Assembly (NCBI RefSeq): GCF_050920415.1
Contig: NZ_CP169309.1
DNA length: 64,000 bases
DNA from: Escherichia coli
Lineage (GTDB): Bacteria > Pseudomonadota > Gammaproteobacteria > Enterobacterales > Enterobacteriaceae
Strand: one strand, 5' to 3'
Each line of letters begins with the position of its first letter. Position 1 is the stretch's first letter. Shown here piece by piece: positions 9,121 to 58,505 of this stretch. The notes beneath the pieces were generated by a model. The model worked only from the letters and a program-made list of their open reading frames with translations. It did not search any database and was not told the DNA's origin. The translations under genes and the position numbers were made by a program.

Positions 9121-9121
9121 A

Positions 9122-9148: not shown

Positions 9149-9154
9149 CTCACA

Positions 9155-10575: not shown

Positions 10576-10606
10576 AGAAACGTTAACACACCTTTAAACA
10601 AGACAA

Positions 10607-11521: not shown

Positions 11522-13236
11522 GCCATGGATTCCTGCACATGAAGGCTTGCAGCATAACGTTTTTTCGCTTCCGCACGGGCAGGCTTGCCGGAGGACGTTC
11601 GGGGAATACTGTGGGGCGGCAACAGATCGATAGCCGCTGTTACGCCAAATTCGCTTTGGATCCGTGCTGCCAGTGCGTGGATAAGCTGCCCACGACGTTC
11701 TTCGTCGCTGATCCTACACTGGATCTGCAAAATGATTTTTTCCTGGGCGGTAACAAAAGCAATCGCATCGCCAGAATGAATTTCCGGTTCCTGTTCCGCA
11801 ATATATTCAATATCCTGCGGCCAGATATTACGGCCACGAATAATAATCAGATCTTTAATGCGCCCGGTGACATACAGATAACCATCCAGCAGATAACCGA
11901 GGTCGCCGGTATCTAACCAGCCCGTCGCGGCAATCTCGTCTTGCGAAACCTGGTCGCCAAAGTAACCGCTCATCAGGCTGGGGCCGGAGATGCAAATATG
12001 GCCTACCACACGTTCCGCGACCGGCATACCTGCTTCATTGCGGATTTCAATGCCATGTTCCGGCAACGCTTTACCGCAGTTGACGAAAGTCGATACGGCG
12101 CGTGTTTCAGCACCCGGCGCGACGGCTTTGCCCTGATATTCAAGGATGTCGCGATCCACTTCGTTAACCACAACCCCGGAGGCTTCATCAGAGAAGCTGA
12201 CAGCCAGCGCATTTTCTGCCAGTCCGTAGCACGGCATGAAAGTTTTATCGTCAAAGTTAACCTGACGGAAACATTCAGCAAATTGGTGGAGTTGTTCTGC
12301 GGAGATGGGTTCTGCGCCAATACCAGCGACGCGCCAGCACGAGAGATCCAGTTCAGCGAGATCTTTTTCATTCACGCGGCGCTGACACAATTCATAGCCA
12401 AACGGCGGCGCGACGGAAACTGTGCCACGATTTTTACTGATCAATTTAAGCCATTGCAGCGGACGCATGGCAAAATCCTGAGTGCGCAAATAATCTACTG
12501 AGAGCTGCGTGGCGACGGGGGTCAGGAGAAAGCCGACCAGTCCCATATCATGGTAGAAAGGCAGCCAGGAGACGCAGCGGTCGCCAGGGCGTAATTTAAT
12601 GCCATCGTGGCTTATAGCACGTAGATTAGCCATCACTTCGCGATGGGTGATAATGACGCCACGGGGAAAACGGGTGCTGCCGGAGGTGTACTGGAGGTAG
12701 GCGATATCGTTCGGAACTGGACGCTGGAGTACAACATCGGCTTCCGGTAATGCCTTAAACCAGGCGTGGCTTAAAACATGTAATTCGGGGTTGTTATGCG
12801 TAGCAGCATTGACCAGTGGCAACCACTCATCACCAGTGATAATGGCTGCGGGCTGGCAACTAGCCAGTAAACCTTGCAGTTTAGCGCTCCAGGAATCCCG
12901 CTGACCGACGCCCATTGGAATCGCTAACGGGACGGCGACTAAGCCGGCATACTGGCAGGCAAAAAAAGCCTCTACAAACCCGCTACTCGTTTCGGCAATC
13001 AGCGCCACGCGATCGCCTTTTTTCAGATTTAGTGATAACAACCGCTTCGCACCAGCTTCGGCACACGCTTTTAACGTCTGATATTCCAGTTGATCTTCAA
13101 GTTGGCAACGTCTGTCATAAAAATTCATTCCGGCGCTACTCAGAGCGGCGTAGTCCAAAGCATCAACCAGCGTTGGAAAATCGGCATAGCGCATAGGTAG
13201 GGAATGCGTAAAGATGTTATTAGACATATACACCAC
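11518..13236 (-). CDS. Fatty-acyl-AMP ligase / acyl-ACP synthetase (adenylate-forming enzyme)
   Basis: 572 aa. AMP-binding motifs YTSGSTRFPRGV, DTGDLGY and GRIKDLIIIRGRNIWPQDIE. The exact start (Met1, Met4 or Met15) is uncertain. Confidence 0.85.
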   Translation of the reverse strand: MVYMSNNIFTHSLPMRYADFPTLVDALDYAALSSAGMNFYDRRCQLEDQLEYQTLKACAEAGAKRLLSLNLKKGDRVALIAETSSGFVEAFFACQYAGLVAVPLAIPMGVGQRDSWSAKLQGLLASCQPAAIITGDEWLPLVNAATHNNPELHVLSHAWFKALPEADVVLQRPVPNDIAYLQYTSGSTRFPRGVIITHREVMANLRAISHDGIKLRPGDRCVSWLPFYHDMGLVGFLLTPVATQLSVDYLRTQDFAMRPLQWLKLISKNRGTVSVAPPFGYELCQRRVNEKDLAELDLSCWRVAGIGAEPISAEQLHQFAECFRQVNFDDKTFMPCYGLAENALAVSFSDEASGVVVNEVDRDILEYQGKAVAPGAETRAVSTFVNCGKALPEHGIEIRNEAGMPVAERVVGHICISGPSLMSGYFGDQVSQDEIAATGWLDTGDLGYLLDGYLYVTGRIKDLIIIRGRNIWPQDIEYIAEQEPEIHSGDAIAFVTAQEKIILQIQCRISDEERRGQLIHALAARIQSEFGVTAAIDLLPPHSIPRTSSGKPARAEAKKRYAASLHVQESMA

Positions 13237-29371: not shown

Positions 29372-30181
29372 ATGTTTTTTGATGTTTTTCAGCAATACCC
29401 CGCGGCGATGCCCGTCCTGGCTACCGTCGGAGGATTGATTATCGGCAGTTTTTTGAATGTGGTGATTTGGCGTTACCCCATCATGCTGCGCCAACAAATG
29501 GCGGAGTTTCACGGTGAAATGCCGAGTACGCAGTCAAAAATAAGCCTTGCGCTACCGCGTTCGCACTGCCCACATTGTCAGCAGACCATCCGGATACGTG
29601 ACAATATTCCGCTGCTCTCCTGGCTGATGCTCAAAGGGCGCTGCCGTGATTGTCAGGCGAAAATCAGCAAGCGTTATCCGCTGGTGGAGTTATTGACAGC
29701 ACTCGCTTTTTTGCTGGCGAGTCTGGTCTGGCCGGAAAGTGGATGGGCGCTGGCGGTGATGATATTATCCGCCTGGCTGATTGCCGCGAGCATCATTGAC
29801 CTCGATAACCAATGGCTGCCCGATGTTTTTACTCAGGGCGTATTGTGGACCGGGCTGATTGCGGCATGGGTGCAACAGAGTCCGTTAACGCTACAAGACG
29901 CAGTTACCGGCGTCCTGGTGGGATTTATCACTTTTTACTCCCTGCGCTGGATAGCCGGAATAGTTCTGCGTAAAGAAGCATTAGGCATGGGCGATGTATT
30001 ACTCTTCGCCGCGTTAGGTGGCTGGGTGGGCGCGTTGTCGCTGCCCAATGTGGCTTTAATCGCCTCATGCTGCGGCCTGATATATGCCGTTATTACAAAA
30101 AGAGGATCAACCACACTGCCTTTTGGACCGTGTTTAAGTCTGGGCGGTATAGCAACACTTTATCTACAGGCATTGTTTTAA
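29372..30181 (+). CDS. pppA: Prepilin peptidase (GspO/PulO family) for T2SS pseudopilins
   Basis: 269 aa polytopic membrane protein with a cysteine-rich cytoplasmic loop (CPHCQQ...CRDCQ) typical of prepilin peptidases. Confidence 0.9.
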
Positions 30182-30246
30182 TGATAACCCCGTCATTATC
30201 AAAGTGACATTTTAACTCTTATTAATAACCTTGGAGATTATTTACC

Positions 30247-30657
30247 ATGTCGATAAAACAGATGCCAGGGAGGGTATTAATATCGCTATTGTTGAGCGTT
30301 ACAGGATTATTAAGTGGCTGTGCCAGCCATAATGAAAATGCCAGTTTACTGGCGAAAAAACAGGCGCAAAATATCAGCCAAAACCTGCCGATTAAATCTG
30401 CGGGATATACCTTAGTGCTGGCGCAAAGTAGCGGCACGACGGTAAAAATGACCATTATCAGCGAAGCGGGTGCTCAGACCACGCAGACGCCAGACGCCTT
30501 TTTAACCAGCTACCAACGACAAATGTGCGCTGACCCGACGGTGAAATTAATGCTCACTGAGGGAATTAATTACAGCATAACGATTAATGATACACGTACA
30601 GGTAACCAGTATCAGCGGAAACTGGATCGCACCACCTGTGGAATAGTCAAAGCATAA
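30247..30657 (+). CDS. yghG: Small outer-membrane lipoprotein YghG, T2SS-beta secretin pilotin-like
   Basis: 136 aa, signal peptide with lipobox LLSGC. Conserved position between pppA and gspC. Confidence 0.8.
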   Translation: MSIKQMPGRVLISLLLSVTGLLSGCASHNENASLLAKKQAQNISQNLPIKSAGYTLVLAQSSGTTVKMTIISEAGAQTTQTPDAFLTSYQRQMCADPTVKLMLTEGINYSITINDTRTGNQYQRKLDRTTCGIVKA

Positions 30658-30672
30658 CGTCGGGTATATAAA

Positions 30673-31626
30673 TTGGCGCGGGTTGTTTTTCGTGACGCAC
30701 GAATTTATCTCATTCAATGGCTGACTAAAATTCGTCACACTCTTAACCAGAGACAATCTCTTAATACAAACAAAGAGCATCTTCGCAAAATTGTACGCGC
30801 GATGTTCTGGCTGATGCTGCTTATTATTTCTGCAAAAATGGCGTATTCACTCTGGCGCTATTTCTCCTTTTCTGCGGAATATACGGCGGTTTCTCCATCG
30901 GTGAATAAACAGCCCCATGCGGATGTAAAAACGTTCGATAAAAAAGATGTGCAATTAATCAGCCAGCAAAACTGGTTTGGTAAATATCAGCGCGTCGCCA
31001 CACCGGTAAAGCAACCTGAACCTGTAGCAGAAACGCGTCTTAATGTGGTGCTGCGCGGGATCGCCTTTGGTGCCAGACCCGGCGCGGTTATTGAAGAAGG
31101 TGGCAAACAGCAGGTCTATTTGCAGGGTGAACGGCTTGGCTCTCACAACGCATTGATTGAGGAAATCAATCGCGACCATGTGATGCTGCGCTATCAGGGA
31201 AAAATAGAGCGGCTCAGTCTGGCAGAAGAGGAGCGTTCCACCGTAGCCGTGACCAACAAAAAAGCCGTCAGTGACGAAGCAAAGCAAGCTGTTGCTGAGC
31301 CTGCTACCCGTGCGCCCGTTGAGATCCCGGCTGCTGTGCGTCAGGCACTGGCGAAAGATCCGCAGAAAATTTTTAACTATATCCAGCTTACGCCTGTGCG
31401 TAAGGAGGGAATTGTCGGTTATGCAGTGAAGCCGGGGGCAGATCGTTCTCTGTTCGATGCCAGCGGTTTCAGGGAAGGCGATATCGCCATTGCGCTCAAT
31501 CAGCAGGATTTCACTGATCCACGAGCAATGATTGCTCTGATGCGGCAGTTACCTTCAATGGATTCCATTCAACTTACGGTTTTACGCAAGGGTGCGCGCT
31601 ACGACATTTCCATCGCGCTGCGCTAA
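30673..31626 (+). CDS. gspC: T2SS protein GspC
   Basis: TM segment near the N-terminus, then a Pro/Ala-rich linker and C-terminal PDZ-like region. Precedes gspD. The start codon is uncertain (track start is TTG). Confidence 0.8.
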   Translation: MARVVFRDARIYLIQWLTKIRHTLNQRQSLNTNKEHLRKIVRAMFWLMLLIISAKMAYSLWRYFSFSAEYTAVSPSVNKQPHADVKTFDKKDVQLISQQNWFGKYQRVATPVKQPEPVAETRLNVVLRGIAFGARPGAVIEEGGKQQVYLQGERLGSHNALIEEINRDHVMLRYQGKIERLSLAEEERSTVAVTNKKAVSDEAKQAVAEPATRAPVEIPAAVRQALAKDPQKIFNYIQLTPVRKEGIVGYAVKPGADRSLFDASGFREGDIAIALNQQDFTDPRAMIALMRQLPSMDSIQLTVLRKGARYDISIALR

Positions 31627-31655
31627 CCGCATTTAATCCAGGAGAATCATTCATC

Positions 31656-33716
31656 GTGTTTTGGCGTGATATTACGTTGTCGGTCTGGCGTAAGAAGACA
31701 ACTGGCCTCAAAACAAAAAAGCGTTTACTGCCGCTGGTGCTGGCAGCGGTATTATGCAGTTCACCGGTCTGGGCGGAAGAAGCCACTTTCACCGCTAATT
31801 TTAAAGATACCGACCTGAAATCGTTCATCGAAACCGTCGGCGCTAACCTTAATAAAACCATCATTATGGGGCCGGGCGTACAGGGGAAAGTGAGTATTCG
31901 TACCATGACTCCGCTCAATGAACGCCAGTATTACCAGCTATTCCTTAACCTGCTGGAAGCACAGGGGTATGCCGTCGTACCGATGGAAAACGACGTGCTG
32001 AAGGTGGTGAAATCCAGCGCCGCGAAAGTCGAGCCACTGCCGCTGGTCGGTGAAGGCAGCGACAACTACGCGGGCGATGAAATGGTCACTAAAGTAGTGC
32101 CGGTACGCAATGTTTCGGTACGAGAGCTGGCGCCGATCCTGCGCCAGATGATCGATAGCGCTGGCTCAGGCAACGTTGTTAATTACGATCCCTCCAACGT
32201 GATTATGCTCACCGGGCGCGCCTCCGTCGTGGAACGGCTGACAGAAGTGATCCAGCGCGTGGATCATGCGGGAAACCGCACCGAAGAGGTGATCCCGCTG
32301 GATAACGCCTCGGCCTCGGAAATTGCCCGCGTGCTGGAAAGCCTGACCAAAAACAGCGGCGAGAACCAGCCTGCGACGCTGAAATCTCAAATTGTCGCCG
32401 ACGAACGCACCAACAGCGTGATTGTCAGTGGTGACCCTGCCACGCGAGACAAAATGCGCCGCCTGATCCGTCGGCTGGACTCAGAAATGGAGCGCAGCGG
32501 CAACAGCCAGGTGTTCTATCTCAAATACAGCAAAGCCGAAGATCTGGTCGATGTGTTGAAACAGGTCAGCGGCACGCTCACAGCGGCTAAAGAAGAGGCG
32601 GAAGGCACGGTTGGTAGCGGGCGTGAGGTTGTCTCCATCGCCGCCAGCAAACACAGTAATGCCCTGATTGTCACCGCGCCGCAGGACATCATGCAGTCGC
32701 TGCAAAGCGTGATTGAACAACTGGATATTCGCCGTGCTCAGGTGCATGTCGAGGCGTTGATCGTGGAAGTTGCCGAAGGCAGCAATATCAACTTCGGCGT
32801 GCAGTGGGCGTCGAAAGATGCCGGATTAATGCAGTTTGCTAACGGTACGCAGATCCCTATCGGTACGCTGGGCGCAGCCATTTCTCAGGCGAAACCGCAG
32901 AAAGGTTCAACGGTGATCAGCGAAAACGGTGCCACCACCATTAACCCGGATACTAACGGCGATCTCTCCACGCTCGCCCAGCTTCTTTCTGGCTTTAGCG
33001 GTACGGCGGTTGGCGTGGTGAAAGGCGACTGGATGGCGCTGGTACAGGCGGTTAAAAACGACTCCAGCTCGAACGTTCTCTCCACGCCGAGCATCACTAC
33101 GCTGGACAACCAGGAAGCCTTCTTCATGGTGGGTCAGGATGTTCCGGTATTAACCGGCTCTACCGTTGGCTCCAATAACAGCAATCCTTTCAATACAGTA
33201 GAAAGGAAAAAAGTCGGCATCATGCTGAAAGTCACGCCGCAGATTAACGAAGGAAACGCGGTACAGATGGTGATTGAGCAGGAAGTGTCGAAGGTGGAAG
33301 GACAGACCAGCCTCGACGTCGTGTTTGGCGAGCGCAAACTGAAAACCACCGTGCTGGCAAACGATGGTGAGCTGATCGTGCTTGGCGGTCTGATGGACGA
33401 TCAGGCGGGAGAAAGCGTGGCGAAAGTGCCGCTGCTTGGCGATATCCCATTGATTGGTAACCTGTTTAAATCGACGGCGGATAAAAAAGAAAAACGTAAT
33501 CTGATGGTGTTTATCCGCCCGACCATTCTGCGTGATGGTATGGCGGCAGACGGCGTGTCGCAGCGCAAATATAACTATATGCGCGCCGAACAGATCTATC
33601 GCGATGAGCAGGGCTTAAGCCTGATGCCGCACACCGCGCAGCCGGTACTGCCAGCGCAAAATCAGGCTCTACCGCCGGAAGTTCGTGCGTTCCTTAATGC
33701 CGGGAGAACGCGTTAA
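31656..33716 (+). CDS. gspD: T2SS secretin GspD
   Basis: 686 aa, GTG start with AGGAGA RBS, signal peptide [17 protein letters not shown]. Secretin C-domain ([14 protein letters not shown]). Confidence 0.9.
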
Positions 33717-35209
33717 TGGTGCCTGTAGCACAGGAAACCACCGCTAACACCGTGCGTCTGCCCTACAGTTTCAGCCGTCGGTTTAGTCTGGTGGCATGGT
33801 GCGAAGCGTCGCTGGAGATCCTCCATGTGCATCCGTTGTCGCTCTCTGTTTTGCAGGAGCTGCAACGGGGGCTGAACGCGCCCTTTACGCTGCGGCAAAT
33901 CGACGAAGCCGAATTTGAACAGCGGCTGAATGCGGTCTGGCAGCGGGACTCTTCCGAAGCTCGCCAGCTGATGGAAGATCTCGGTTCCGCCGAGGACTTT
34001 TTTACCCTCGCTGAAGAACTGCCGGAAACGGAAGATCTGCTGGAAAGTGACGACGATGCGCCAATCATCAAACTGATCAACGCCATGTTGGCAGAGGCGA
34101 TTAAAGAAGGCGCTTCGGATATCCACATCGAGACATTTGAAAAGAGTCTGGTGATCCGTTTTCGTGTTGACGGCACATTACATGAAATGCTGCGCCCGGG
34201 GCGCAAACTGGCCTCGCTGCTGGTATCACGTATTAAGGTGATGGCGCGGCTGGATATCGCCGAAAAGCGCGTACCGCAGGATGGCCGTATTGCGCTGCTG
34301 CTGGGTGGTCGGGCGATTGACGTGCGTGTCTCCACTATGCCTTCCGCCTGGGGCGAGCGCGTGGTGCTGCGACTGCTGGACAAAAACCAGGCCCGCCTGA
34401 CGCTGGAGCGTCTGGGTTTAAGTCAGCAACTGACCGCGCAGCTGCGCCAGTTACTGCACAAACCGCACGGCATCTTTCTGGTGACGGGGCCGACAGGTTC
34501 CGGCAAAAGCACCACGCTGTACGCCGGATTGCAGGAGCTGAACAACCACTCGCGCAACATTCTCACGGTTGAAGACCCCATCGAATACATGATTGAAGGG
34601 ATCGGTCAGACACAGGTTAACACCCGCGTCGGCATGACCTTCGCCCGTGGCCTGCGCGCGATTTTGCGTCAGGACCCGGATGTGGTGATGGTCGGTGAAA
34701 TCCGCGATACCGAAACCGCAGAAATCGCCGTCCAGGCGTCATTGACCGGACACCTGGTTCTTTCCACGCTGCATACCAACACGGCGGTGGGGGCGATCAC
34801 GCGTTTGCAGGATATGGGCGTTGAGCCTTTCCTGCTCTCTTCCAGCCTGACGGGCGTGATGGCGCAGCGACTTGTTCGCACACTGTGCACCGACTGCCGC
34901 CAGCCCGCGCCTGCCACTGATGAAGAAAAACGCCTGCTGGGAATTACCGACGTGCGTACCGTCACGCTGTACCATCCGCAGGGCTGCCCCGCCTGTAATC
35001 ACAAAGGTTTTCGCGGGCGTACTGCCATCCATGAGCTGATCGTGGTAGACGCCACATTGCGTGATTTGATCCACCGTCAGGCCGGGGAACTGGAGCTGGA
35101 ACGTTATGTCCGGCAACACTCTGCGGGTATCCGCAGCAACGGCATTGAGAAAGTGCTTGCCGGAGAAACCTCTCTCGATGAAGTGCTGCGGGTAACGATG
35201 GAGGCGTAA
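33716..35209 (+). CDS. gspE: T2SS ATPase GspE
   Basis: 497 aa. Walker [10 protein letters not shown] and C-terminal tetracysteine (CTDC...CPAC). Start overlaps the gspD stop (TAATG). Confidence 0.95.
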
Positions 35210-36432
35210 TGGCACTGTTTTACTATCAGGCGTTACAGCGTAATGGTCGCAAAACCAAAGGTATGATTGAGGCGGATTCCGCGCGTCATGCCCGCCAGTT
35301 GTTGCGCGGTAAAGAGCTTATCCCCGTACACATTGAAGCCCGGATGAATGCTTCGTCAGGGGGAATGTTGCAGCGTCGGCGACACGCACATCGTCGTGTG
35401 GCGGCGGCAGATCTGGCGCTGTTCACTCGCCAACTGGCAACGCTGGTGCAGGCAGCAATGCCGCTGGAAACCTGCTTACAGGCGGTCAGTGAGCAAAGTG
35501 AAAAACTGCATGTAAAAAGCCTCGGAATGGCGCTACGCAGCCGGATTCAGGAAGGTTACACCCTGTCGGACAGCCTGCGCGAACATCCCCGCGTCTTTGA
35601 CTCCCTGTTTTGTTCGATGGTGGCTGCCGGAGAAAAATCCGGGCATCTCGACGTGGTGCTCAATCGCCTGGCGGATTACACCGAACAGCGACAGCGCCTG
35701 AAATCACGCCTGCTGCAGGCCATGCTCTATCCGCTGGTACTGCTGGTGGTGGCAACGGGCGTGGTCACTATTTTGCTGACGGCGGTGGTGCCGAAAATTA
35801 TCGAACAGTTTGATCATCTCGGACTCGCGCTGCCTGCCTCCACCCGCGCTCTTATCGCTATGAGCGACGCGTTGCAGACCAGCGGCGTTTACTGGCTGGC
35901 GGGTCTGCTAGGGCTTCTGGTGCTGGGGCAACGACTACTCAAAAATCCTGCTATGCGCCTGCGCTGGGATAAAACCTTGCTGCGTCTTCCCGTGACGGGG
36001 CGTGTTGCGCGCGGACTGAATACGGCGCGCTTTTCCCGCACCTTAAGCATCCTCACCGCCAGCAGTGTTCCGTTGCTGGAAGGCATTCAGACCGCCGCTG
36101 CCGTGTCGGCAAATCGCTATGTCGAGCAACAACTGCTGCTGGCGGCAGATCGCGTCCGCGAAGGAAGCAGCTTGCGCGCTGCGCTGGCGGAGTTGAGCCT
36201 GTTCCCGCCGATGATGCTGTACATGATCGCCTCCGGCGAACAGAGCGGTGAACTGGAAACCATGCTTGAACAGGCCGCAGTCAACCAGGAACGGGAATTT
36301 GATACCCAGGTGGGGCTGGCGTTAGGGCTGTTTGAGCCTGCTCTGGTGGTGGTGATGGCGGGTGTGGTGCTGTTTATCGTCATCGCCATCCTCGAGCCGA
36401 TGCTGCAACTGAACAATATGGTTGGAATGTAA
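35209..36432 (+). CDS. gspF: T2SS inner-membrane platform protein GspF
   Basis: 407 aa, three TM segments with two cytoplasmic domains. TAATG overlap with gspE. Confidence 0.9.
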   Translation: MALFYYQALQRNGRKTKGMIEADSARHARQLLRGKELIPVHIEARMNASSGGMLQRRRHAHRRVAAADLALFTRQLATLVQAAMPLETCLQAVSEQSEKLHVKSLGMALRSRIQEGYTLSDSLREHPRVFDSLFCSMVAAGEKSGHLDVVLNRLADYTEQRQRLKSRLLQAMLYPLVLLVVATGVVTILLTAVVPKIIEQFDHLGLALPASTRALIAMSDALQTSGVYWLAGLLGLLVLGQRLLKNPAMRLRWDKTLLRLPVTGRVARGLNTARFSRTLSILTASSVPLLEGIQTAAAVSANRYVEQQLLLAADRVREGSSLRAALAELSLFPPMMLYMIASGEQSGELETMLEQAAVNQEREFDTQVGLALGLFEPALVVVMAGVVLFIVIAILEPMLQLNNMVGM

Positions 36433-36448
36433 TTTACGGAGTTATCAC

Positions 36449-36904
36449 ATGAATTCGTTATCCCGCACACAAGAACCACGGGCAGGTTTTACCCTGCTGG
36501 AAGTGATGGTGGTGATTGTTATTCTTGGCGTCCTGGCAAGTCTGGTGGTGCCTAACCTTTTGGGCAACAAAGAGAAAGCAGATCGGCAAAAAGCCATCAG
36601 CGATATCGTGGCGCTGGAGAACGCGCTGGATATGTATCGACTGGATAACGGGCGTTATCCGACCACCGAACAGGGGCTTGAGGCGCTGATCCAGCAACCG
36701 GCCAATATGGCGGACTCCCGCAACTACCGTCCTGGTGGATACATCAAACGGCTGCCAAAGGATCCGTGGGGCAATGATTATCAGTATCTCAGCCCGGGTG
36801 AAAAAGGACTGTTTGATGTTTACACCTTAGGGGCGGATGGTCAGGAAAACGGGGAAGGTGCTGGCGCAGATATCGGTAACTGGAATTTGCAGGAGTTTCA
36901 GTAA
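36449..36904 (+). CDS. gspG: T2SS major pseudopilin GspG
   Basis: Start at the ATG at 36449 (RBS GGAG). Prepilin leader and cleavage site ...RAGFTLLEVMVVIVILGVLASLVVPN. Confidence 0.9.
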   Translation: MNSLSRTQEPRAGFTLLEVMVVIVILGVLASLVVPNLLGNKEKADRQKAISDIVALENALDMYRLDNGRYPTTEQGLEALIQQPANMADSRNYRPGGYIKRLPKDPWGNDYQYLSPGEKGLFDVYTLGADGQENGEGAGADIGNWNLQEFQ

Positions 36905-36907
36905 TCA

Positions 36908-37471
36908 GTGCCCAAACGTGGATTCACTCTTCTGGAAATCATGCTGGTGATTTTCCTTATCGGCCTTGCCAGTGCGGGCGTGGTACAGACTTTTGCGAGC
37001 CGTTCTGAACCGCCCGCGAAAAAAGCGGCGCAGGATTTCCTGGCCCGCTTTGCGCAGTTTAAGGACAGGGCAGTGATCGAAGGGCAAACACTCGGTGTGC
37101 TAATCGACCCGCCTGGCTATCAGTTTATGCAGCGTCGTCACGGGCAGTGGTTGCCCGTTTCTGCGACCCGGTTATCGGCACAGGTTACGGTGGCGAAACA
37201 GGTGCAGATGCTGTTACAACCCGGCAGTGATATCTGGCAGAAGGAATATGCGCTGGAGCTGCAGCGTCGCCGCCTGACGCTGCACGATATTGAACTGGAG
37301 CTGCAAAAAGAGGCGAAAAAGAAGACGCCGCAGATCCGTTTTTCTCCTTTTGAACCCGCCGCGCCGTTTACGCTGCGCTTCTACTCGGCGGCGCAAAACG
37401 CGTGTTGGGCGGTAAAGCTGGCGCACGATGGCGCGTTATCCCTCAATCAATGTGATGAGAGGATGCCATGA
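36908..37471 (+). CDS. gspH: T2SS minor pseudopilin GspH
   Basis: GTG start, MPKRGFTLLEIMLVIFLIGL prepilin motif. Confidence 0.85.
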   Translation: MPKRGFTLLEIMLVIFLIGLASAGVVQTFASRSEPPAKKAAQDFLARFAQFKDRAVIEGQTLGVLIDPPGYQFMQRRHGQWLPVSATRLSAQVTVAKQVQMLLQPGSDIWQKEYALELQRRRLTLHDIELELQKEAKKKTPQIRFSPFEPAAPFTLRFYSAAQNACWAVKLAHDGALSLNQCDERMP

Positions 37472-37839
37472 AGCGCGGATTTACCTTGCTGGAAGTGATG
37501 ATCGCACTGGCGATTTTTGCGCTGGCTGCCACGGCGGTGTTACAGATTGCCAGCGGTGCGCTGAGTAATCAGCAAATCCTTGAGGAAAAAACGGTAGCGG
37601 GCTGGGTAGCTGAAAACCAGACCGCACTGCTCTACCTGATGACCCGTGAACAACGAGCGGTCAGGCACCAGGGCGAGAGTGATATGGCTGGAAGCCGCTG
37701 GTACTGGCGAACCACACCGCTGAATACCGGTAACGCGCTGCTCCAGGCGGTGGATATTGAAGTCAGTCTTCATGAAGACTTTTCGTCGGTGATTCAGTCA
37801 CGACGCGCCTGGTTTAGCGCCGTGGGAGGCCAACAGTGA
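37468..37839 (+). CDS. gspI: T2SS minor pseudopilin GspI
   Basis: MKRGFTLLEVMIALAIF prepilin motif. ATGA overlap with gspH. Confidence 0.85.
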   Translation: MKRGFTLLEVMIALAIFALAATAVLQIASGALSNQQILEEKTVAGWVAENQTALLYLMTREQRAVRHQGESDMAGSRWYWRTTPLNTGNALLQAVDIEVSLHEDFSSVIQSRRAWFSAVGGQQ

Positions 37840-38441
37840 GAAGGACTCGCGCTGGTTTCACGTTACTGGAAATGCTGGTGGCAATCGCCATTTTTGCCTC
37901 GCTGGCACTGATGGCACAGCAGGTGACAAACGGCGTCACACGCGTGAATAGCGCCGTCGCCGGACACGATCAAAAACTGAACCTCATGCAGCAAACGATG
38001 AGTTTTCTGACCCACGATCTGACACAAATGATGCCGCGTCCGGTAAGAGGCGATCAGGGTCAGCGAGAACCTGCGTTACTGGCGGGCGCTGGCGTGCTGG
38101 CCTCTGAGAGTGAAGGAATACGCTTTGTGCGCGGCGGTGTGGTTAATCCATTGATGCGTCTGCCGCGCAGTAATCTGCTCACCGTCGGTTACCGCATTCA
38201 TGACGGTTATCTCGAACGGTTAGCCTGGCCGCTGACCGATGCCGCAGGCAGCGTGAAGCCAACAACGCAAAAGTTGATTCCGGCGGATTCACTTCGTTTG
38301 CAGTTTTACGACGGCACTCGCTGGCAGGAAACCTGGTCATCAGTGCAGGCGATCCCTGTGGCAGTGCGCATGACTCTGCATTCGCCGCAATGGGGCGAGA
38401 TTGAACGCATCTGGTTGTTACGCGGGCCGCAATTATCATGA
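37836..38441 (+). CDS. gspJ: T2SS minor pseudopilin GspJ
   Basis: GTG start, AGFTLLEMLVAIAIF prepilin motif. Confidence 0.85.
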   Translation: MRRTRAGFTLLEMLVAIAIFASLALMAQQVTNGVTRVNSAVAGHDQKLNLMQQTMSFLTHDLTQMMPRPVRGDQGQREPALLAGAGVLASESEGIRFVRGGVVNPLMRLPRSNLLTVGYRIHDGYLERLAWPLTDAAGSVKPTTQKLIPADSLRLQFYDGTRWQETWSSVQAIPVAVRMTLHSPQWGEIERIWLLRGPQLS

Positions 38442-39415
38442 TCACCTCACCACCAAAACGCGGAATGGCACTGGTCGTGGTGCTGGTATTGCTGGCGGTC
38501 ATGATGCTGGTAACCATCACGCTTTCCGGGCGGATGCAGCAACAACTTGGGCGAACGCGCAGCCAGCAGGAGTACCAGCAGGCGCTGTGGTATAGCGCCA
38601 GTGCAGAAAGCCTCGCGCTGAGCGCACTCAGTCTGAGCCTGAAAAATGAAAAGCGCGTGCATCTGGCGCAGCCGTGGGCTTCCGGCCCTCGTTTGTTGCC
38701 ACTGCCGCAGGGGCAAATTGCCGTCACTCTGCGTGACGCTCAGGCCTGCTTTAACCTGAATGCCCTTGCTCAACCAACAACGGCGTCGCGTCCGCTCGCG
38801 GTACAACAACTGATTGCCCTGATCTCGCGCCTGGATGTGCCTGCTTATCGGGCCGAACTGATAGCCGAAAGCCTGTGGGAATTTATTGACGAGGACCGCA
38901 GCGTGCAGACGCGTCTGGGCCGTGAAGACAGCGAGTATCTCGCCCGTTCGGTACCGTTCTACGCCGCGAATCAACCGCTGACCGATATCAGCGAAATGCG
39001 CGTGGTACAGGGAATGGACGCCGGCCTTTATCAAAAACTCAAACCGCTGGTCTGTGCGCTGCCGATGACCCACCAGCAAATCAACATCAATACCTTAGAC
39101 GTCACGCAAAGTGTGATTCTTGAGGCGCTGTTTGACCCGTGGTTAAGCCCTGTTCAGGCGCGGGCGTTATTACAACAACGTCCTGCGAAGGGCTGGGAAG
39201 ATGTCGATCAGTTTCTCGCACAGCCGCTACTCGTTGACGTCGATGAGCGTACTAAAAAAAAGCTAAAAACCGTCCTGAGCGTGGACAGCAATTACTTCTG
39301 GCTGCGTTCAGATATCACCGTGAATGAGATTGAACTGACGATGAATTCGTTAATTGTCCGCATGGGCCCACAACATTTTTCGGTTCTCTGGCATCAGACA
39401 GGAGAAAGTGAGTGA
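38438..39415 (+). CDS. gspK: T2SS minor pseudopilin GspK
   Basis: 325 aa, N-terminal hydrophobic segment GMALVVVLVLLAVMMLV. Conserved position. Confidence 0.85.
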   Translation: MITSPPKRGMALVVVLVLLAVMMLVTITLSGRMQQQLGRTRSQQEYQQALWYSASAESLALSALSLSLKNEKRVHLAQPWASGPRLLPLPQGQIAVTLRDAQACFNLNALAQPTTASRPLAVQQLIALISRLDVPAYRAELIAESLWEFIDEDRSVQTRLGREDSEYLARSVPFYAANQPLTDISEMRVVQGMDAGLYQKLKPLVCALPMTHQQININTLDVTQSVILEALFDPWLSPVQARALLQQRPAKGWEDVDQFLAQPLLVDVDERTKKKLKTVLSVDSNYFWLRSDITVNEIELTMNSLIVRMGPQHFSVLWHQTGESE

Positions 39416-40590
39416 GTTCCATCCTTGAGATTTATTTCCCGCTTTGCGCCGCTGATCCCCTCCGTTGGCAACGCCGTACACACGACGTGGTGCACGGTAT
39501 CTGGCCTGACGTTGCTGACGAACGTCTCCAGCAATGGCTGCAAACTGATGCGATTCGACTCTACATTCCCGGCGAATGGATCAGCATCTGGCAGGTTGAA
39601 CTGCCTGATGTCGCACGTAAGCAGATACCGACTATTCTGCCCGCCTTACTGGAAGAAGAACTGAACCAGGATATCGACGAACTGCATTTTGCGCCGTTGA
39701 AAATCGACCAGCAACTGGCAACCGTGGCAGTGATTCACCAGCAGCATATGCGCAACATTGCGCAGTGGTTGCAGACAAACGGCATTACCCGCGCCACCGT
39801 TGCACCGGACTGGATGTCCATTCCTTGTGGATTTATGGCTGGCGATGCACAGCGAATTATTTGCCGCATCGATGAATGCCGGGGATGGAGCGCCGGGCGG
39901 GCGCTGGCTCCGCTCATGTTCCGCGCACAGCTCAATGAGCAGGCGTCTCCGCTTTCGCTGACCGTAGTCGGAATCGCGCCGGAAGAGCTATCTGCATGGG
40001 CTGGCCCAGACGCTGAACGTCTGACAGTGACGGCCCTGCCAGCCGTTACCACTTATGGCGAACCGGAAGGGAACCTGCTAACAGGGCCGTGGCAGCCTCG
40101 CGTCAGCTACCGAAAACAGTGGGCGCGCTGGCGGGTGATGATTCTGCCGATATTGCTGATTCTGGTTGCGCTGGCAGTGGAACGGGGCGTGACGTTATGG
40201 AGCGTCAGCGAACAGGTGGCGCAAAGCCGCACCCAGGCGGAGAAACAGTTCTTAACGCTATTCCCGGAGCAGAAGCGGATTGTGAATTTACGCTCTCAGG
40301 TGACGATGGCGCTGAAAAAATATCGCCCACAGACCGACGAAACCGATCTGCTCGCTGAGTTGTCAGCGATTGCCAGCACGCTGAAATCAGCGTCACTTTC
40401 CGACATTGAGATGCGTGGTTTCACCTTTGATCAAAAACGCCAGACGCTTCATCTCCAGTTGCGGGCCGCAAACTTTGCCAGCTTCGACAAACTGCGTAGC
40501 GCACTGGCGGCAGATTATGTTGTGCAACAGGACGCGTTACAGAAAGAGGGTGATGCGGTTTCCGGCGGCGTAACGTTGCGGAGGAAATAA
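39412..40590 (+). CDS. gspL: T2SS inner-membrane protein GspL
   Basis: 392 aa, GTG start overlapping the gspK stop. Cytoplasmic N-domain, single TM (WRVMILPILLILVALAV), periplasmic C-domain. Confidence 0.85.
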   Translation: MSSILEIYFPLCAADPLRWQRRTHDVVHGIWPDVADERLQQWLQTDAIRLYIPGEWISIWQVELPDVARKQIPTILPALLEEELNQDIDELHFAPLKIDQQLATVAVIHQQHMRNIAQWLQTNGITRATVAPDWMSIPCGFMAGDAQRIICRIDECRGWSAGRALAPLMFRAQLNEQASPLSLTVVGIAPEELSAWAGPDAERLTVTALPAVTTYGEPEGNLLTGPWQPRVSYRKQWARWRVMILPILLILVALAVERGVTLWSVSEQVAQSRTQAEKQFLTLFPEQKRIVNLRSQVTMALKKYRPQTDETDLLAELSAIASTLKSASLSDIEMRGFTFDQKRQTLHLQLRAANFASFDKLRSALAADYVVQQDALQKEGDAVSGGVTLRRK

Positions 40591-40591
40591 C

Positions 40592-53215: not shown

Positions 53216-54352
53216 TTACTCAGCCAGAAAAAGCTCCAGCAGCGAATTTAAAAACAACTTCCCATGTTCCGTTATCTGCCAGTAATCCGCACATTCTGTG
53301 AGATAACCCTGAGCAATAGCCTCGTCTAACTGTGGGCGAATCACATCTTCGCAAAGCCCGGTATACGCACTAAACTCTGCGCGTGGTGCGGCCTCCAGCA
53401 AGCGAAAGCGGTTCATAAAGAACTCAAACGGCTTATCTGCGGCTTCGACATCACGCAGGCTTTCCAGATAACGCCCCTGCATAAAACCACGCGGGTGCCG
53501 CGTTTTGGTGGTGCGCAGAATGCGCCCATCCGGGAAGGTGACTTTGCCGTGCGCCCCGCAGCCGATGCCGATGTAGTCGCCAAATCGCCAGTAGTTGAGA
53601 TTGTGCTGGCACTGATAACCCGGTTTGGCGTAAGCGGAGGTTTCATATTGCTGATAACCCGCAGCCGTTAATAACTGATGCCCTTGCTCGAAGATATCCC
53701 ACAATGCATCGTCGTCCGGCAGTACAGGAGGGCGCGAGCCAAACAACGTATTAGGTTCGATGGTCAGTTGATACCAGGAAAGGTGCGGCGGATTCAGTTC
53801 AATGGCCTGGCGTAGATCGCCAAGCGCCTCTTCCAGTGATTGATCAGGCAACCCATGCATCAAATCGAGGTTAAAACTACGCAGCCCCAGCCCGCTTGCC
53901 AGATTTGCCGCCCGTTTCGCTTCTTGCGGGCCATGAATACGTCCAAGTCGTTTTAGCTTTTCTTCACTAAAACTCTGCACACCAATAGATATGCGGTTTA
54001 CACCAGCACGCTGATAATCAACAAAGCGATCGGCTTCTACCGTGCCTGGGTTCGCTTCCATGGTGATTTCTGCATCCGCTGCCAGCGGCAAACGCGCACG
54101 CACGCCGTCCAGCAGCGTTTGCATCGCCGGGCCAGAAAGCAGGCTCGGCGTACCGCCGCCAATAAAGATTGTCTGCACTTCACGGCCCTGAGCGTAAGCC
54201 ACATCGTTGTCCAGATCGTTAAGCAGATGCTGAACATAATCGTCGTGCGGCACTTCTCCTTTCAACGCGTGAGAGTTGAAATCGCAGTACGGGCATTTCT
54301 GCACGCACCACGGGATGTGAATGTAGAGACTCAGCGGCGGTAATTTAACCAT
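53216..54352 (-). CDS. hemW: Radical-SAM heme chaperone HemW (YggW)
   Basis: 378 aa, N-terminal CxxxCxxC radical-SAM motif ([12 protein letters not shown]). Confidence 0.9.
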
Positions 54353-54938
54353 TTCGTAAAGCGTCCAACAGCAGTTTCAATGCCTGACCACGGTGGGAAA
54401 TGGCGCTCTTTTCTTCGCGGGTCAGTTCGGCAGCGGTTTTACCTTCGGAAGGCACGAAGAATATTGGATCATAACCAAAGCCGCCAGTACCCGCCGGTTC
54501 ACGAGTAATCACGCCCGGCCAGCTACCGTGGCACACCAGCGGAGTCGGATCTTCCGCGTGGCGCAGATATACCAGCACGCAGTGGAAACGCGCTTGACGT
54601 TGGTCGTCCGGTACGTCTTTCAGAGTTTCCAACAGTTTTTGCAGATTCTTTTGATCGGTCGCGTCTTCACCGGAATAACGTGCGGAGTAAATCCCAGGCG
54701 CACCGCCAAGCACATCTACCGCCAGACCAGAGTCGTCGGCAATTGCTGGTAAACCGGTCACTTTTGCCGCGTGTCGTGCTTTCAGAATCGCGTTTTCGAT
54801 AAAGGTCAGGCCGGTTTCTTCGGCAGAATCTACGCCGAGGTCTGTTTGGGCCACGATATCAAGACCGAAGTCGCTAAGCAGCGACGCCAGCTCACGCACT
54901 TTACCGGCATTGCCGGTTGCGAGGACAACTTTTTGCAT
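54345..54938 (-). CDS. rdgB: dITP/XTP pyrophosphatase
   Basis: 197 aa, Ham1/Maf-type motifs ([12 protein letters not shown]). Overlaps hemW by 8 nt. Confidence 0.9.
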
Positions 54939-54945
54939 AGGATAC

Positions 54946-55236
54946 CTAATTAATTAACGCCGCGATTTCTGGCGGGATTTGTTGCGGATTAATGATTTTA
55001 ATTTGTTTGTGGCGGCCAAGTTCGCCTTTCTCAATTACCACCTGGCTTTTGGCTACCCGGAATTGCTTGCCGAGAAACTTCACCAGATGGCTGTTGGCCT
55101 GGCCGTCAACCGGCGGCGCGGTAATGGCGACTTTTACTTCGTCGCCATGTAAACCGACAATAGAATCACGGCTGGCTTTCGGCTGAATATAAAGCCGTAA
55201 AACCAGACCGTCATCGTTAACTGTTACGGCACTCAT
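54946..55236 (-). CDS. yggU: DUF167-family protein YggU
   Basis: Start taken at the internal Met ([25 protein letters not shown]), about 96 aa. The track ORF begins 4 codons earlier. Confidence 0.8.
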
Positions 55237-55799
55237 AACGCCATCCACAGCCCCGGTAGCAGCATGTTTCCGGTCGCCTGCAGTACTTCTGCGACACCCA
55301 TATTAATGACATACAGCAGCAGAACGAGGATCATCGGCGAGAAATCAATCCCACCCATTGCTGGCAGCAGGCGGCGAATCGGGCGCAGCAGTGGATCAGC
55401 AAGCTGGATCAGGACGTATTCAATCGGGCTACGACCCTGGCTTACCCAGCTCATAATCGCCATCACCAGCAGGACCCAGAAAATCAACAGGCCGATGGTT
55501 TTCAGCAAAATCAGTAAACCAGCAATCCAGATGATCGGCAGGAAAGTCACGACTTTAAACAGCACGATGGCTTTGATAAAACTCAAAATGTACGCAACCA
55601 GCAGCGAGGCGCTATCAATGGGGCCCATTGCCGGAATAACGCGGCGCAGTGGTCCGATAATCGGCTGCGTCACCTTCACCACAAACTGTGAGAAGGGGTT
55701 GTAAAAATCACAATGAGCCCACTGCATCCAGATGCGTAATAACAGCACCATGGTATACAGCTCAATGACCGTTGAAAGCAGGAAAGTCAACGTATTCAT
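55233..55799 (-). CDS. yggT: YGGT-family inner-membrane protein
   Basis: 188 aa, four hydrophobic segments. Stop overlaps the yggU start. Confidence 0.85.
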
Positions 55800-55816
55800 G
55801 GCGTTCCTTTGATTCC

Positions 55817-56521
55817 TTATTTTTTAGAGTAATCACGCGCACCAAAAATTGCAGTGCCGATACGAACCATCGTGCTACCTGCCGCAATGGCGGCTTCCAT
55901 ATCGTCCGACATTCCCAGAGAGAGCGTGTCGATATGCGGGTAGCGCGTTTTCAGTCCGGCAAATGCTACAGCCATTTGGCGTGCAACTTCAAACTGCCTT
56001 ACATATTCTGACTCAGGCGCAGGGATCGCCATCAGCCCGCGTAGACGTAAACGCGGTAGTTCAGAGACCGCTGCTGCCAGCTCGTCCAGTTCAGCCAGTT
56101 GAATCCCGGACTTACTGTTTTCATCACTAATATTAATTTGAATCAGTACGTTAAGAGGGGGAAGTTCTGCCGGGCGCTGGTCGTTCAGGCGGGTGGCGAT
56201 GCGCAAACGGTCGATGGTATGACACCAGTCGAAATGTTCTGCCACCAGGCGGCTTTTATTAGACTGCAACGGGCCAATAAAATGCCATTCTAATCCTGTT
56301 ACGCCCAGTTCCTGAAAGTGGCGAATTTTATCTACCCCTTCCTGAACATAGTTTTCACCAAATTGACGCTGCCCGGCATCAATGGCTTCTGCGATGGCGC
56401 TCGCAGGTTTTGTTTTACTGACTGCAAGCAGCGTAATTTCTTCTGGAGAACGACCGCAACGCGTTGCAGCCGCTGAGATTTTGTCCCGGACCTGTGCCAG
56501 GTTATGCGCAATATCGTTCAT
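55817..56521 (-). CDS. yggS: PLP-homeostasis protein (YggS/PLPBP family)
   Basis: 234 aa, alanine-racemase-N-like fold with the PLP lysine in LAVSKTK. Confidence 0.9.
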   Translation of the reverse strand: MNDIAHNLAQVRDKISAAATRCGRSPEEITLLAVSKTKPASAIAEAIDAGQRQFGENYVQEGVDKIRHFQELGVTGLEWHFIGPLQSNKSRLVAEHFDWCHTIDRLRIATRLNDQRPAELPPLNVLIQINISDENSKSGIQLAELDELAAAVSELPRLRLRGLMAIPAPESEYVRQFEVARQMAVAFAGLKTRYPHIDTLSLGMSDDMEAAIAAGSTMVRIGTAIFGARDYSKK

Positions 56522-56538
56522 TTTCCGAGGATCTTAGT

Positions 56539-57519
56539 ATGAATATGGAAGAAATTGTGGCCCTTAGTGTAAAGCATAATGTCTCGGATCTACACCTGTG
56601 CAGCGCCTGGCCCGCACGATGGCGTATTCGCGGGAGGATGGAAGCTGCGCCGTTTGATGCGCCGGACGTGGAAGAGCTACTACGGGAGTGGCTGGATGAC
56701 GATCAGCGGGCAATATTGCTGGAGAATGGTCAGTTAGATTTTGCTGTGTCGCTGGCGGAAAACCAGCGATTGCGCGGCAGTGCGTTCGCGCAACGGCAAG
56801 GTATTTCTCTGGCATTACGGCTGTTGCCTTCGCACTGCCCGCAGCTCGAACAGCTTGGCGCACCACCGGTATTGCCGGAATTACTCAAGAGCGAGAATGG
56901 CCTGATTCTGGTGACGGGGGCGACGGGGAGCGGCAAATCTACCACGCTGGCGGCGATGGTTGGCTATCTCAATCAACATGCCGATGCGCATATTCTGACG
57001 CTGGAAGATCCTGTGGAATATCTCTATGCCAGCCAGCGATGTTTGATCCAGCAGCGGGAGATTGGTTTGCACTGTATGACGTTCGCATCGGGGTTGCGGG
57101 CTGCATTGCGGGAAGATCCCGATGTGATATTGCTCGGAGAGCTGCGTGACAGCGAGACAATCCGTCTGGCGCTGACGGCGGCAGAAACCGGGCATCTGGT
57201 GCTGGCAACATTACATACGCGTGGTGCGGCGCAGGCAGTTGAGCGACTGGTGGATTCATTTCCGGCGCAGGAAAAAGATCCCGTGCGTAATCAACTGGCA
57301 GGTAGTTTACGGGCGGTGTTGTCACAAAAGCTGGAAGTGGATAAACAGGAAGGACGCGTGGCGCTGTTTGAATTGCTGATTAACACACCTGCGGTGGGGA
57401 ATTTGATTCGAGAAGGGAAAACCCACCAGTTACCGCATGTTATTCAAACCGGGCAGCAGGTGGGGATGATAACGTTTCAGCAGAGTTATCAGCTGCGGGT
57501 GGGGGAAGGGCGTTTGTAA
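56539..57519 (+). CDS. yggR: PilT-like type IV pilus retraction ATPase homolog
   Basis: Start at the ATG at 56539 (MNMEEIVALSVKHNVSDLHL), 326 aa. Walker A GATGSGKST. Confidence 0.9.
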   Translation: MNMEEIVALSVKHNVSDLHLCSAWPARWRIRGRMEAAPFDAPDVEELLREWLDDDQRAILLENGQLDFAVSLAENQRLRGSAFAQRQGISLALRLLPSHCPQLEQLGAPPVLPELLKSENGLILVTGATGSGKSTTLAAMVGYLNQHADAHILTLEDPVEYLYASQRCLIQQREIGLHCMTFASGLRAALREDPDVILLGELRDSETIRLALTAAETGHLVLATLHTRGAAQAVERLVDSFPAQEKDPVRNQLAGSLRAVLSQKLEVDKQEGRVALFELLINTPAVGNLIREGKTHQLPHVIQTGQQVGMITFQQSYQLRVGEGRL

Positions 57520-57525
57520 ATCGCC

Positions 57526-57942
57526 TTAATATCCCTGCTCGAAATAACTTTCGAGAATAATAACCGCAGAGGCAGAGTCGACTTTACCTTTGTTGAGCGC
57601 CCGATAGCCGCCCTGTTCGAACAGACCGGAGCGCGCTTCCACGGTGCTAAGCCGTTCATCATGGAGCTTAACTTCAACACCGAAACGACCATGAATACGG
57701 TTGGCAAATTTACGCGCTCTGGCAGTCAACGGCTGTTCTGTGCCGTCCATATTCAGCGGCAAACCGACGATGATTTCGTCCGGCTGCCACTCTTTCAGTA
57801 AACGTTCGATGAGATTCCAGTCCGGCGTACCGTCCTGCGCTTTAATTGCAGGCAAAGGGCGAGCGGTGCCGGTAATGCGTTGGCCGACCGCTACGCCAAT
57901 GCTTTTAGTGCCGAAGTCGAAGGCGAGTAAGGTTCCACTCAT
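57526..57942 (-). CDS. ruvX: Putative pre-16S rRNA nuclease / Holliday-junction resolvase-like (YqgF/RuvX)
   Basis: Start at the internal Met ([20 protein letters not shown]), 138 aa. Start overlaps the yqgE stop by 1 nt. Confidence 0.9.
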
Positions 57943-58505
57943 CAGGCGTGCCCCGCAACGCCAGGCATGGTGAGAATATCCACACCAATCAGTTTTGCCG
58001 CATCGCGCCAGCGGTCGGCAATCGGTGTTTTGAACAGAATATTCAGATCTGCCGGGGCGGTTAGCCACGCGTTATCGAGAATTTCTTGTTCCAGTTGACC
58101 TTTCTCCCAGGAGGCATACCCCAGCGCCACCAATACGTCAGACGGTTGTTTATCGGTGCCGAGCGTTTCCAGCACATCGCGGGAAGTGGTCATCACCGTG
58201 TTGTCTGAAATGCGAATGCTGGAAGCAAAATTGGAGGGCGGAGTATGCAAAATAAACCCGCGATCTTCAGCCAGTGGGCCGCCGAGCATAACCGGTTTAT
58301 CCAGACGGATTGATTCATCACGCGGCTCCGGCGTGATCTTCAGCTTTTCCAGAATCCCTTCAATTTTGAGATTTTCCAGCGGCTTGTTGACGATGATCCC
58401 CATTGCACCATTGGTATTATGTTCGCAAATGTAGACCACGGAACGACGGAAAATCGGATCCTGGAGAGCAGGCATGGCAATAAGAAAGTGATGCTGTAAA
58501 TTCAT
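57942..58505 (-). CDS. yqgE: UPF0301 / DUF179 protein YqgE
   Basis: Start at [30 protein letters not shown], 187 aa. Confidence 0.85.

Follow-up and report, generated by a model that had tools for sequence, protein, structure and literature searches.

A close relative of the protein studied here, its ortholog from Escherichia coli K-12, has been assayed in Vibrio cholerae (bioRxiv 10.1101/2021.10.23.465551). YggR of MG1655 complements pilT and pilTU deletions of that species for natural transformation, its Walker A mutant does not, and in the pilTU deletion the K-12 protein retracts pili alone. The same work used E201A as the Walker B mutant of the K-12 protein, there called PilT_Ec, and described two substitutions in its AIRNLIRE signature, the same two as those of the protein reported below. 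ATPase-dead PilT_Ec gave no PilU-dependent retraction, unlike its Acinetobacter and Pseudomonas orthologs, and such retraction was still absent when AIRNLIRE was restored or 15 C-terminal residues were added; E. coli has no PilU ortholog (bioRxiv 10.1101/2021.10.23.465551). The genes of type IVa pili are usually split among multiple loci (PMC6668835), and DNA uptake that is induced by Sxy and depends on HofQ has been demonstrated in E. coli (PMC3330819).

The yggR gene and its product

We analysed a stretch of 64,000 nucleotides, hereafter the window, from E. coli MFDS1022581. It is identical to positions 769961-833960 of NZ_CP169399.1 except for 5 substitutions, none of which is near yggR. 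RefSeq names the product of 56539-57519 yggR, PilT/PilU family type 4a pilus ATPase. The gene and its surroundings comprise the following features.

56539-57519, + strand: yggR (pilT) coding sequence, ATG start, 326 aa, TAA stop (open reading frame listing and sequence)
56527-56531, + strand: Shine-Dalgarno GAGGA, 7 nt 5' of the yggR ATG (read from the sequence)
56522-56538, no strand: gap of 17 bp between the start codons of yggS and yggR
55817-56521, - strand: yggS (PLP homeostasis protein), divergent neighbour of yggR
57526-57942, - strand: ruvX (yqgF), convergent with yggR, 6 bp past its stop

A first, sequence-only reading of the window had placed yggR divergently from yggS, yggT and yggU, and both the open reading frame listing and RefSeq bear out its coordinates and gene order. 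Beyond yggS, the genes yggT, yggU, rdgB and hemW run in the same strand direction. There is no pilU 3' of yggR, where the next gene is ruvX. The sequence CCGAGGAT at the yggR Shine-Dalgarno is kept in most Enterobacteriaceae loci. Because the start codons are only 17 bp apart, the promoters of yggR and yggS must be sought inside each other's coding sequences, and the first 45 codons of yggS overlap the presumed control region of yggR.

YggR matches the TIGR01420 profile (PilT/PilU family type 4a pilus ATPase) with 467.5 bits over profile positions 1-328 of 343, the curated cut-off being 319.1 bits, and the Pfam T2SSE profile with 169.8 bits. Its best match among solved structures is the PilT of Pseudomonas aeruginosa (3jvu, E = 5e-83, 282 bits), with residues 1-319 of YggR aligned end to end with residues 1-322 of that protein. 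The PilT structures of Geobacter, Aquifex and others likewise align end to end. With YggR as the query against the PDB, four PilT structures score 261-282 bits, against 242 bits for PilU (9n32); the PilT of T. thermophilus (5fl3), with 235 bits, falls below this PilU. Chains of PilB, GspE, DotB and VirB11 match over the ATPase core alone. [quoted passage not shown] Motif searches located the following elements.

56917-56943, + strand: Walker A, GATGSGKST, aa 127-135 (motif search), aligned with GPTGSGKST of P. aeruginosa PilT
57004-57018, + strand: Asp box, EDPVE, aa 156-160 (motif search and PilT alignment)
57121-57150, + strand: Walker B, DVILLGELRD, aa 195-204, containing the catalytic Glu201 (motif search)
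57187-57219, + strand: His box, TGHLVLATLHT, aa 217-227 (motif search and PilT alignment)
57391-57414, + strand: AVGNLIRE, aa 285-292, a variant that agrees with the PilT signature AIRNLIRE at 6 of 8 residues

The YggR of the window differs from that of K-12 at 4 of 326 residues (T41A, H87Q, T110P and H319L; 98.8% identity), none of them in a motif. A role as an anti-phage defence ATPase was considered and rejected: PADLOC returned nothing on YggR beyond P-loop matches of 27-37 residues (mad8 with 29 bits, mad3 with 18 bits). The sequence-only reading was right to call yggR a gene for a PilT-type ATPase, given the TIGR01420 score above the cut-off, the match to 3jvu and the presence of all catalytic motifs. 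It had tied this call to the Walker A motif and family similarity alone; the basis is far broader and includes profiles, structures and four motifs. Its description of the function as unclear no longer holds for the protein itself, given that K-12 YggR restores retraction in V. cholerae in a manner that depends on Walker A. The biochemical function of YggR as a retraction motor is already known, from heterologous evidence. The searchable literature yielded no phenotype of a yggR deletion in E. coli.

Pilus genes and the position of pilT

The sequence-only reading had presented yggR as an orphan and had suggested looking for dispersed type IV pilus genes elsewhere in the genome. We found three such loci in the same genome (NZ_CP169399.1), and the gene is no orphan: ppdA-ppdB-ygdB-ppdC lies at 978.7-980.5 kb, hofMNOPQ at 405.2-408.5 kb and ppdD-hofB-hofC at 4272.0-4275.1 kb. 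With the exception of hofC, the genes of these loci are intact and their proteins are 93-100% identical to those of K-12. Among complete E. coli genomes, ppdD-hofBC is present in 5424 out of 5426, and hofMNOPQ and the ppdA-C locus are each present in 5425 out of 5426. The yggR gene (at least 80% of its length) is found in 5424 of the 5426, in agreement with its earlier description as conserved E. coli core.

The platform gene hofC has a private amber codon in the source strain (TGG to TAG at codon 240). A 61-nt hofC probe, whose flanks were partly guessed, has a single match among complete E. coli genomes, in the source strain itself. Should the amber codon be genuine and no artefact of assembly, this isolate probably has a broken pilus machine, with yggR still intact, and may have a motor without a working platform. 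Such a lesion, if real, would be recent and would leave our reading of yggR unchanged.

The window itself had been said to contain no pilin or assembly genes. This holds for type IV pilus genes; it does not extend to type II secretion, for which a complete cluster with pseudopilins is present.

24683-29242: sslE, type II secretion cluster (RefSeq annotation)
29372-30181, + strand: pppA, prepilin peptidase (RefSeq annotation; the open reading frame translates at these window coordinates)
30247-30657: gspS2, type II secretion cluster (RefSeq annotation)
30673-40590: gspC-L, with the pseudopilins gspG-K at 36449-39415 (RefSeq annotation)
40592-41143: yghD, type II secretion cluster (RefSeq annotation)

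This cluster is homologous to type IV pilus machinery, though it contains no type IV pilus genes. Most of it is presumably missing from K-12. Its peptidase PppA may also act on type IV prepilins; it reportedly processes PpdD, in work attributed to Francetic and colleagues in 1998.

The neighbourhood of yggR is shared well beyond E. coli. We fetched 30 Enterobacteriaceae loci, and in all 27 with a callable yggS this gene is divergent from pilT, with a gap of 14-17 bp. Four Erwiniaceae loci show hemW-rdgB-yggT-yggS, then pilT, then ruvX-yqgE-gshB-rsmE on the opposite strand, and a relative of 47% identity has yggT-proC-yggS divergent from pilT. Since the head-to-head pair of yggS and pilT persists down to 47% identity, yggR can be placed at the ancestral position of pilT. 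Judging from gene order, the site next to yggS is this ancestral position and yggR is no stranded copy.

We conclude, with a probability of roughly 0.8, that yggR encodes the PilT retraction ATPase of the dispersed type IVa pilus of E. coli and stands at the ancestral pilT locus. This is supported by membership in the family, intact catalytic motifs, purifying selection (see below), co-occurrence with the pilus loci and the motor activity of the K-12 protein in V. cholerae. A false puzzle is thereby removed: genes for a cognate pilus are present elsewhere in the genome, and the motor gene sits where pilT always sat. The gene is an annotated part of the core, and its family, partners and motor activity are already on record.

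The conserved block at the yggS-yggR junction

We scanned the region upstream of yggR for the core of CRP-S sites, i.e., Sxy-dependent CRP sites. An exact TGCGA-N6-TCGCA occurs at 56390-56405. It is unique in the 64-kb window, where 0.21 matches are expected (about 0.002 per 500 bp). It is listed below with two conserved blocks near the junction of the two genes.

56390-56405, no strand: palindrome TGCGA-N6-TCGCA (CRP-S core), candidate operator, 134-149 bp 5' of the yggR ATG and over yggS codons 39-44
56386-56443, no strand: block conserved at the DNA level in yggS codons 27-45, the palindrome followed by GGTTTnGTTTTACTGACTGCAAGCAnnGTAA (11-species alignment)
56546-56597, no strand: block of conserved synonymous sites in yggR codons 3-20 (11-species alignment)

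Among the 45 loci that we fetched, exact matches to the core are limited to the site shared by the source strain and K-12 and to its orthologues in 11 other genomes. Wherever an Enterobacteriaceae locus extends far enough upstream, and in all four Erwiniaceae, the core is conserved at 9-10 of 10 positions, at offsets of -146 to -149. It is complete (10/10) in Escherichia, Salmonella, Leclercia, one Enterobacter, a subgroup of Citrobacter and Mixta gaviniae, and scores 9/10, with TTCGA or CCGCA in one half, in the other Citrobacter and in Klebsiella, Cedecea, Pantoea and Erwinia. The TTCGA half-site, found in most Citrobacter, Klebsiella, Pantoea and Erwinia, has lost the G at position 5. No CRP-S-like site is present at the same offset in the relatives with 52% and 47% identity, and the element seems, from these loci, to be limited to Enterobacterales.

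In 11 representative species, none of the four synonymous core positions varies while the spacer does, and only 21-25% of the synonymous third positions of yggS codons 1-120 are invariant. When E. coli is compared with each of the four Erwiniaceae, degenerate codons for the same amino acid are identical in 10-14 of 14-16 cases within yggS codons 27-44, against 37-45% elsewhere in the gene (Fisher p = 1e-4, 7e-4, 3e-3 and 0.09 in the four comparisons). Synonymous change is suppressed over about 56386-56600, from codon 45 of yggS to codon 20 of yggR with the gap included; beyond this interval the normal period-3 pattern is back. By inference from the alignment, yggS would have its control region within yggR, as the block at 56546-56597.

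Tentatively, yggR could belong, so far unrecognised, to the Sxy/CRP-S competence regulon, with a predicted operator and promoter within the first 45 codons of yggS; we give this proposal well below even odds. Our confidence that the block across yggS and yggR is a real functional element of some kind, at the DNA or RNA level, is much higher than for the operator reading. The best candidate upstream of ppdD under the same scoring, ATTTGCGAGGCGTTACGAAGAA, reaches 8/10 and is centred about 137 bp 5' of the ATG, the yggR site being centred at 141.5 bp. The flanks of 56390-56405 are not A/T-rich, and the site lies inside coding sequence. On neither strand of 56200-56900 did a promoter scan reveal a sigma-70 consensus. 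Candidates for -10 and -35 elements that were picked by hand, among them the invariant TGaGATTTT at 56474-56482, were guesses and were not used as evidence.

H. influenzae is not known to have a pilT. Pili lacking PilT are mentioned for nontypeable Haemophilus (PMC6668835). Cameron & Redfield reported 13 CRP-S sites in E. coli, among which the yggR site is absent because they examined only orthologs of H. influenzae competence genes; in their study, the Sxy dependence of sbmC was predicted correctly from the CRP-S motif alone. We found no mention of yggR or pilT in those Sxy/CRP-S papers of the Redfield group that we searched, no E. coli regulation or knockout data in the searchable literature on yggR and competence or on pilT and Sxy, and no mention of PilT or YggR in the EHEC pilus literature that we searched. 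The candidate control site may be unreported.

It is possible, if doubtful, that the palindrome and its block have nothing to do with yggR: they could form a hairpin within yggS mRNA, or resemble a terminator that acts on antisense transcripts. The whole element lies within yggS codons 27-45, and the yggS mRNA strand folds there at -9.7 kcal/mol (z = -3.0). However, the + strand fold is no better than shuffled sequences (z = -0.6), and changes from G to T in Citrobacter and from T to C in Cedecea and in one Erwiniaceae locus break stem pairs. There is no covariation in the yggS stem, since these changes in other species come without compensation. A search of 55500-58200 against Rfam gave no match at E up to 1. 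The stretch 56388-56417 on the + strand does score as terminator-like, with a 7-bp stem followed by TTTTGTTTTA, yet there is no + strand gene upstream for it to terminate, all genes from 53216 to 56521 being on the - strand. With this and the shuffle-like + strand fold, we rejected the terminator as the main reading of the palindrome. Against an element unconnected with yggR also stands the location of an exact CRP-S core beside the sole pilus gene as yet unassigned to the Sxy regulon, where about 0.002 matches per 500 bp are expected by chance.

If the Sxy-regulon reading of yggR is true, it would account for the fixed synonymous sites that these yggS codons show in both Enterobacteriaceae and Erwiniaceae: 55 nt of yggS would have to meet coding and regulatory demands at once, a clean example of a regulatory sequence that constrains the synonymous sites of a neighbouring gene. 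The Sxy regulon would also be completed by the retraction motor that it lacks, and the motor would be made only when the pilus is made. The CRP-S-type palindrome within yggS is a modest, testable lead.

Selection, proposed role and comparison with known systems

Between the window and K-12, yggR shows 32.5 synonymous and 4.5 non-synonymous differences (dN/dS of 0.04), a ratio that matches those of its housekeeping neighbours. By these counts, the gene is under strong purifying selection. As for the divergent segment from hemW to ruvX, a donor was sought and none retained: E. albertii, E. whittamii and two other Escherichia species are no closer to the window than K-12. The protein is 326 aa long in 28 of 30 Enterobacteriaceae loci, the exceptions being Cedecea (329 aa) and a disrupted copy in Leclercia. 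Losses do occur: yggR is truncated in Shigella, frameshifted or stopped in Leclercia NCTC13032 and ended by a premature stop in one lineage of Salmonella Saintpaul. This pattern fits a gene that is useful, yet dispensable in some niches.

These losses could also be taken as signs of a cryptic remnant, intact in appearance, unexpressed and serving no E. coli pilus, as could the missing sigma-70 consensus promoter near yggR and the broken hofC of this strain. We find such a remnant very unlikely. The excess of synonymous over non-synonymous differences, the constant protein length and the near-universal presence of the gene (5424 of 5426 genomes) argue against it, as do the intact catalytic motifs, the activity of the K-12 protein as a motor and the conservation of the Shine-Dalgarno and of the upstream block. 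That YggR works mainly outside pilus retraction, e.g., with the type II secretion system that a complete cluster, pseudopilins included, encodes 15-32 kb upstream in the window, or as an ATPase in signalling, as might be suggested by the recovery of yggR in a hypochlorite-resistance screen with ASKA overexpression and by the reported link between P. aeruginosa PilT and surface sensing, is in our view more improbable still: the type II cluster is variable and yggR universal, PilT is frequently lost from type II systems (PMC6668835), yggR is syntenic with yggS and not with gsp genes in all lineages examined, and the K-12 protein retracts a real type IVa pilus.

Under the preferred reading, in which yggR encodes the PilT of the dispersed pilus, YggR would be the hexameric retraction ATPase of the chromosomal type IVa pilus of E. 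coli. The other parts of this machine would be the pilin PpdD, the extension motor HofB, the platform HofC, the alignment complex HofMNOP and the secretin HofQ, with PpdA, PpdB, YgdB and PpdC as minor pilins; the accessory motor PilU has no counterpart in the E. coli system. Within E. coli, we infer, it is the PpdD pilus that YggR acts on. If it behaves like the PilT proteins already characterised, its hexamer would dock on HofC in the place of HofB, and ATP hydrolysis would return PpdD subunits to the inner membrane and thus shorten the pilus. Retraction would draw bound DNA inwards through HofQ when Sxy has induced uptake, and in pilus-making strains YggR could drive twitching. In the more tentative regulatory part of the scheme, CRP and Sxy would switch on yggR together with the rest of the system through the TGCGA-N6-TCGCA embedded in yggS.

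The candidate yggR site can be set beside the CRP-S promoters of ppdD, hofM (yrfD) and sbmC. The C6 and G17 that define the class are also present in TGCGA-N6-TCGCA of yggR, although the latter, unlike the sites of these promoters, lies inside a neighbouring coding sequence. Among motor proteins, HofB/PilB and GspE share the Pfam T2SSE ATPase core with YggR. The match is limited to about residues 51-265 of YggR, which lacks their N-terminal domains, and the PilB and GspE models give it 136-154 bits, against cut-offs of 630-676 bits. PilU (9n32) is closer, with the same TIGR01420 family and fold, yet it scores 242 bits against 282 for PilT. It cannot retract pili alone, whereas the K-12 YggR can do so in a V. 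cholerae pilTU deletion.

The closest counterparts are the PilT proteins of P. aeruginosa and V. cholerae. YggR departs from canonical PilT in its AVGNLIRE signature in the place of AIRNLIRE, in about 15 missing C-terminal residues (326 aa, against 344-345 aa) and, for the K-12 protein, in the inability to support PilU-dependent retraction; moreover, no pilU follows yggR. What they have in common with YggR is more extensive. Like YggR, the P. aeruginosa (3jvu/3jvv) and V. cholerae proteins consist of two domains, lack N1D and carry these same four motifs (Walker A, Asp box, Walker B and His box); the P. aeruginosa protein matches YggR over its full length (E = 5e-83). The pilT of the 47%-identity relative is divergent from yggS, as is yggR, and we take the corresponding pilT-yggS arrangement of P. 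aeruginosa to be PA0392-PA0396. In V. cholerae, the resident PilT can be functionally replaced by the K-12 ortholog of YggR.

Conserved sites around the yggS and yggR start codons

The alignment of 11 Enterobacteriaceae species over this region shows that synonymous sites are almost invariant in yggR codons 3-20 (window 56546-56597), where the conserved pattern reads GGAAGAAAT..TGGCCCTTAGTGTAAAGCATAA.GT.TC.GATCTACACCT. These conserved codons probably contain the promoter or leader of yggS, placed within the yggR coding sequence. We also found a second, weaker match resembling the Sxy-dependent CRP site (CRP-S), TGCCAGGTTATGCGCA, which scores 8/10 and lies at window 56495-56510, 29-44 bp before the start codon of yggR. 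The stretch that holds it is conserved within Enterobacteriaceae, not in Erwiniaceae.

Secretion, lipid and pilus genes

Two further gene clusters of the window, and one pilus gene encoded elsewhere in the source genome, are the following:

24683-41143: complete type II secretion cluster (sslE, pppA, gspS2, gspC-L, yghD)
3394-13227: cluster flanked by yghS and yghO (RefSeq annotation)
NZ_CP169399.1 4273851-4275053 (11852-13054 of L010, the fetched ppdD-hofB-hofC locus of the source strain), outside the window: hofC, pilus platform gene

The type II secretion cluster, most of which we take to be missing from K-12, includes one prepilin peptidase and five pseudopilin genes. The RefSeq products of the yghS-yghO cluster are an LPS biosynthesis protein, YtfJ, additional copies of lptF and lptG, a serine palmitoyltransferase (spt), an acyl carrier protein, an epimerase, and a fatty acyl-AMP ligase. 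These products resemble a lipid pathway of the sphingolipid type, an unusual feature in E. coli.

In the source strain, codon 240 of hofC is changed from TGG to TAG (amber), and RefSeq flags the gene as a pseudogene. The sequence context of this amber codon was found in the source strain only, among the 5426 complete E. coli genomes searched. For the yggR (pilT) ortholog of Leclercia adecarboxylata NCTC13032, the match is 974 nt long (4001-4974 of its fetched locus, L037), a length not divisible by 3, and translation reaches a stop at codon 104. This copy seems to be either a frameshifted pseudogene or the product of a sequencing error.

A divergent hemW-ruvX segment

The window differs from NZ_CP169399.1 at only five positions (5992, 28560, 30874, 52113, and 59724), all of them substitutions, with no indels. 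Compared with K-12, the segment from hemW to ruvX (53216-57942) is unusually divergent, with dS of 0.08-0.31 and nucleotide identities of 93.5% for hemW, 94.4% for yggT, and 94.7% for ruvX, whereas dS is 0.04-0.09 in yggM and in yqgE, gshB, and rsmE just outside the segment. The yggR allele is found at 99% identity or more in the source strain only, and the remaining E. coli genomes are at 95-96.6%. The 4 other Escherichia species compared included no closer donor of the segment.

The first 489 bp of yggR (window 56539-57027) are also carried by the 14.8-kb, ColE1-like plasmids KY612498-KY612500, as the 'delta-yggR' portion of an ISEcp1-blaCMY-2 transposition unit. This piece is 98% identical to the window allele, and almost all E. 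coli chromosomes are less close.

The yggR-ruvX junction

Other Escherichia species carry REP-like inserts between yggR and ruvX, different ones at the same spot. In the window, yggR ends with TAA and only 6 bp (57520-57525) separate it from ruvX. K-12 differs in both respects: its yggR stop is TGA, and about 177 bp of REP/BIME-like repeats lie between the two genes (5918-6100 of L003, the fetched K-12 yggR locus).
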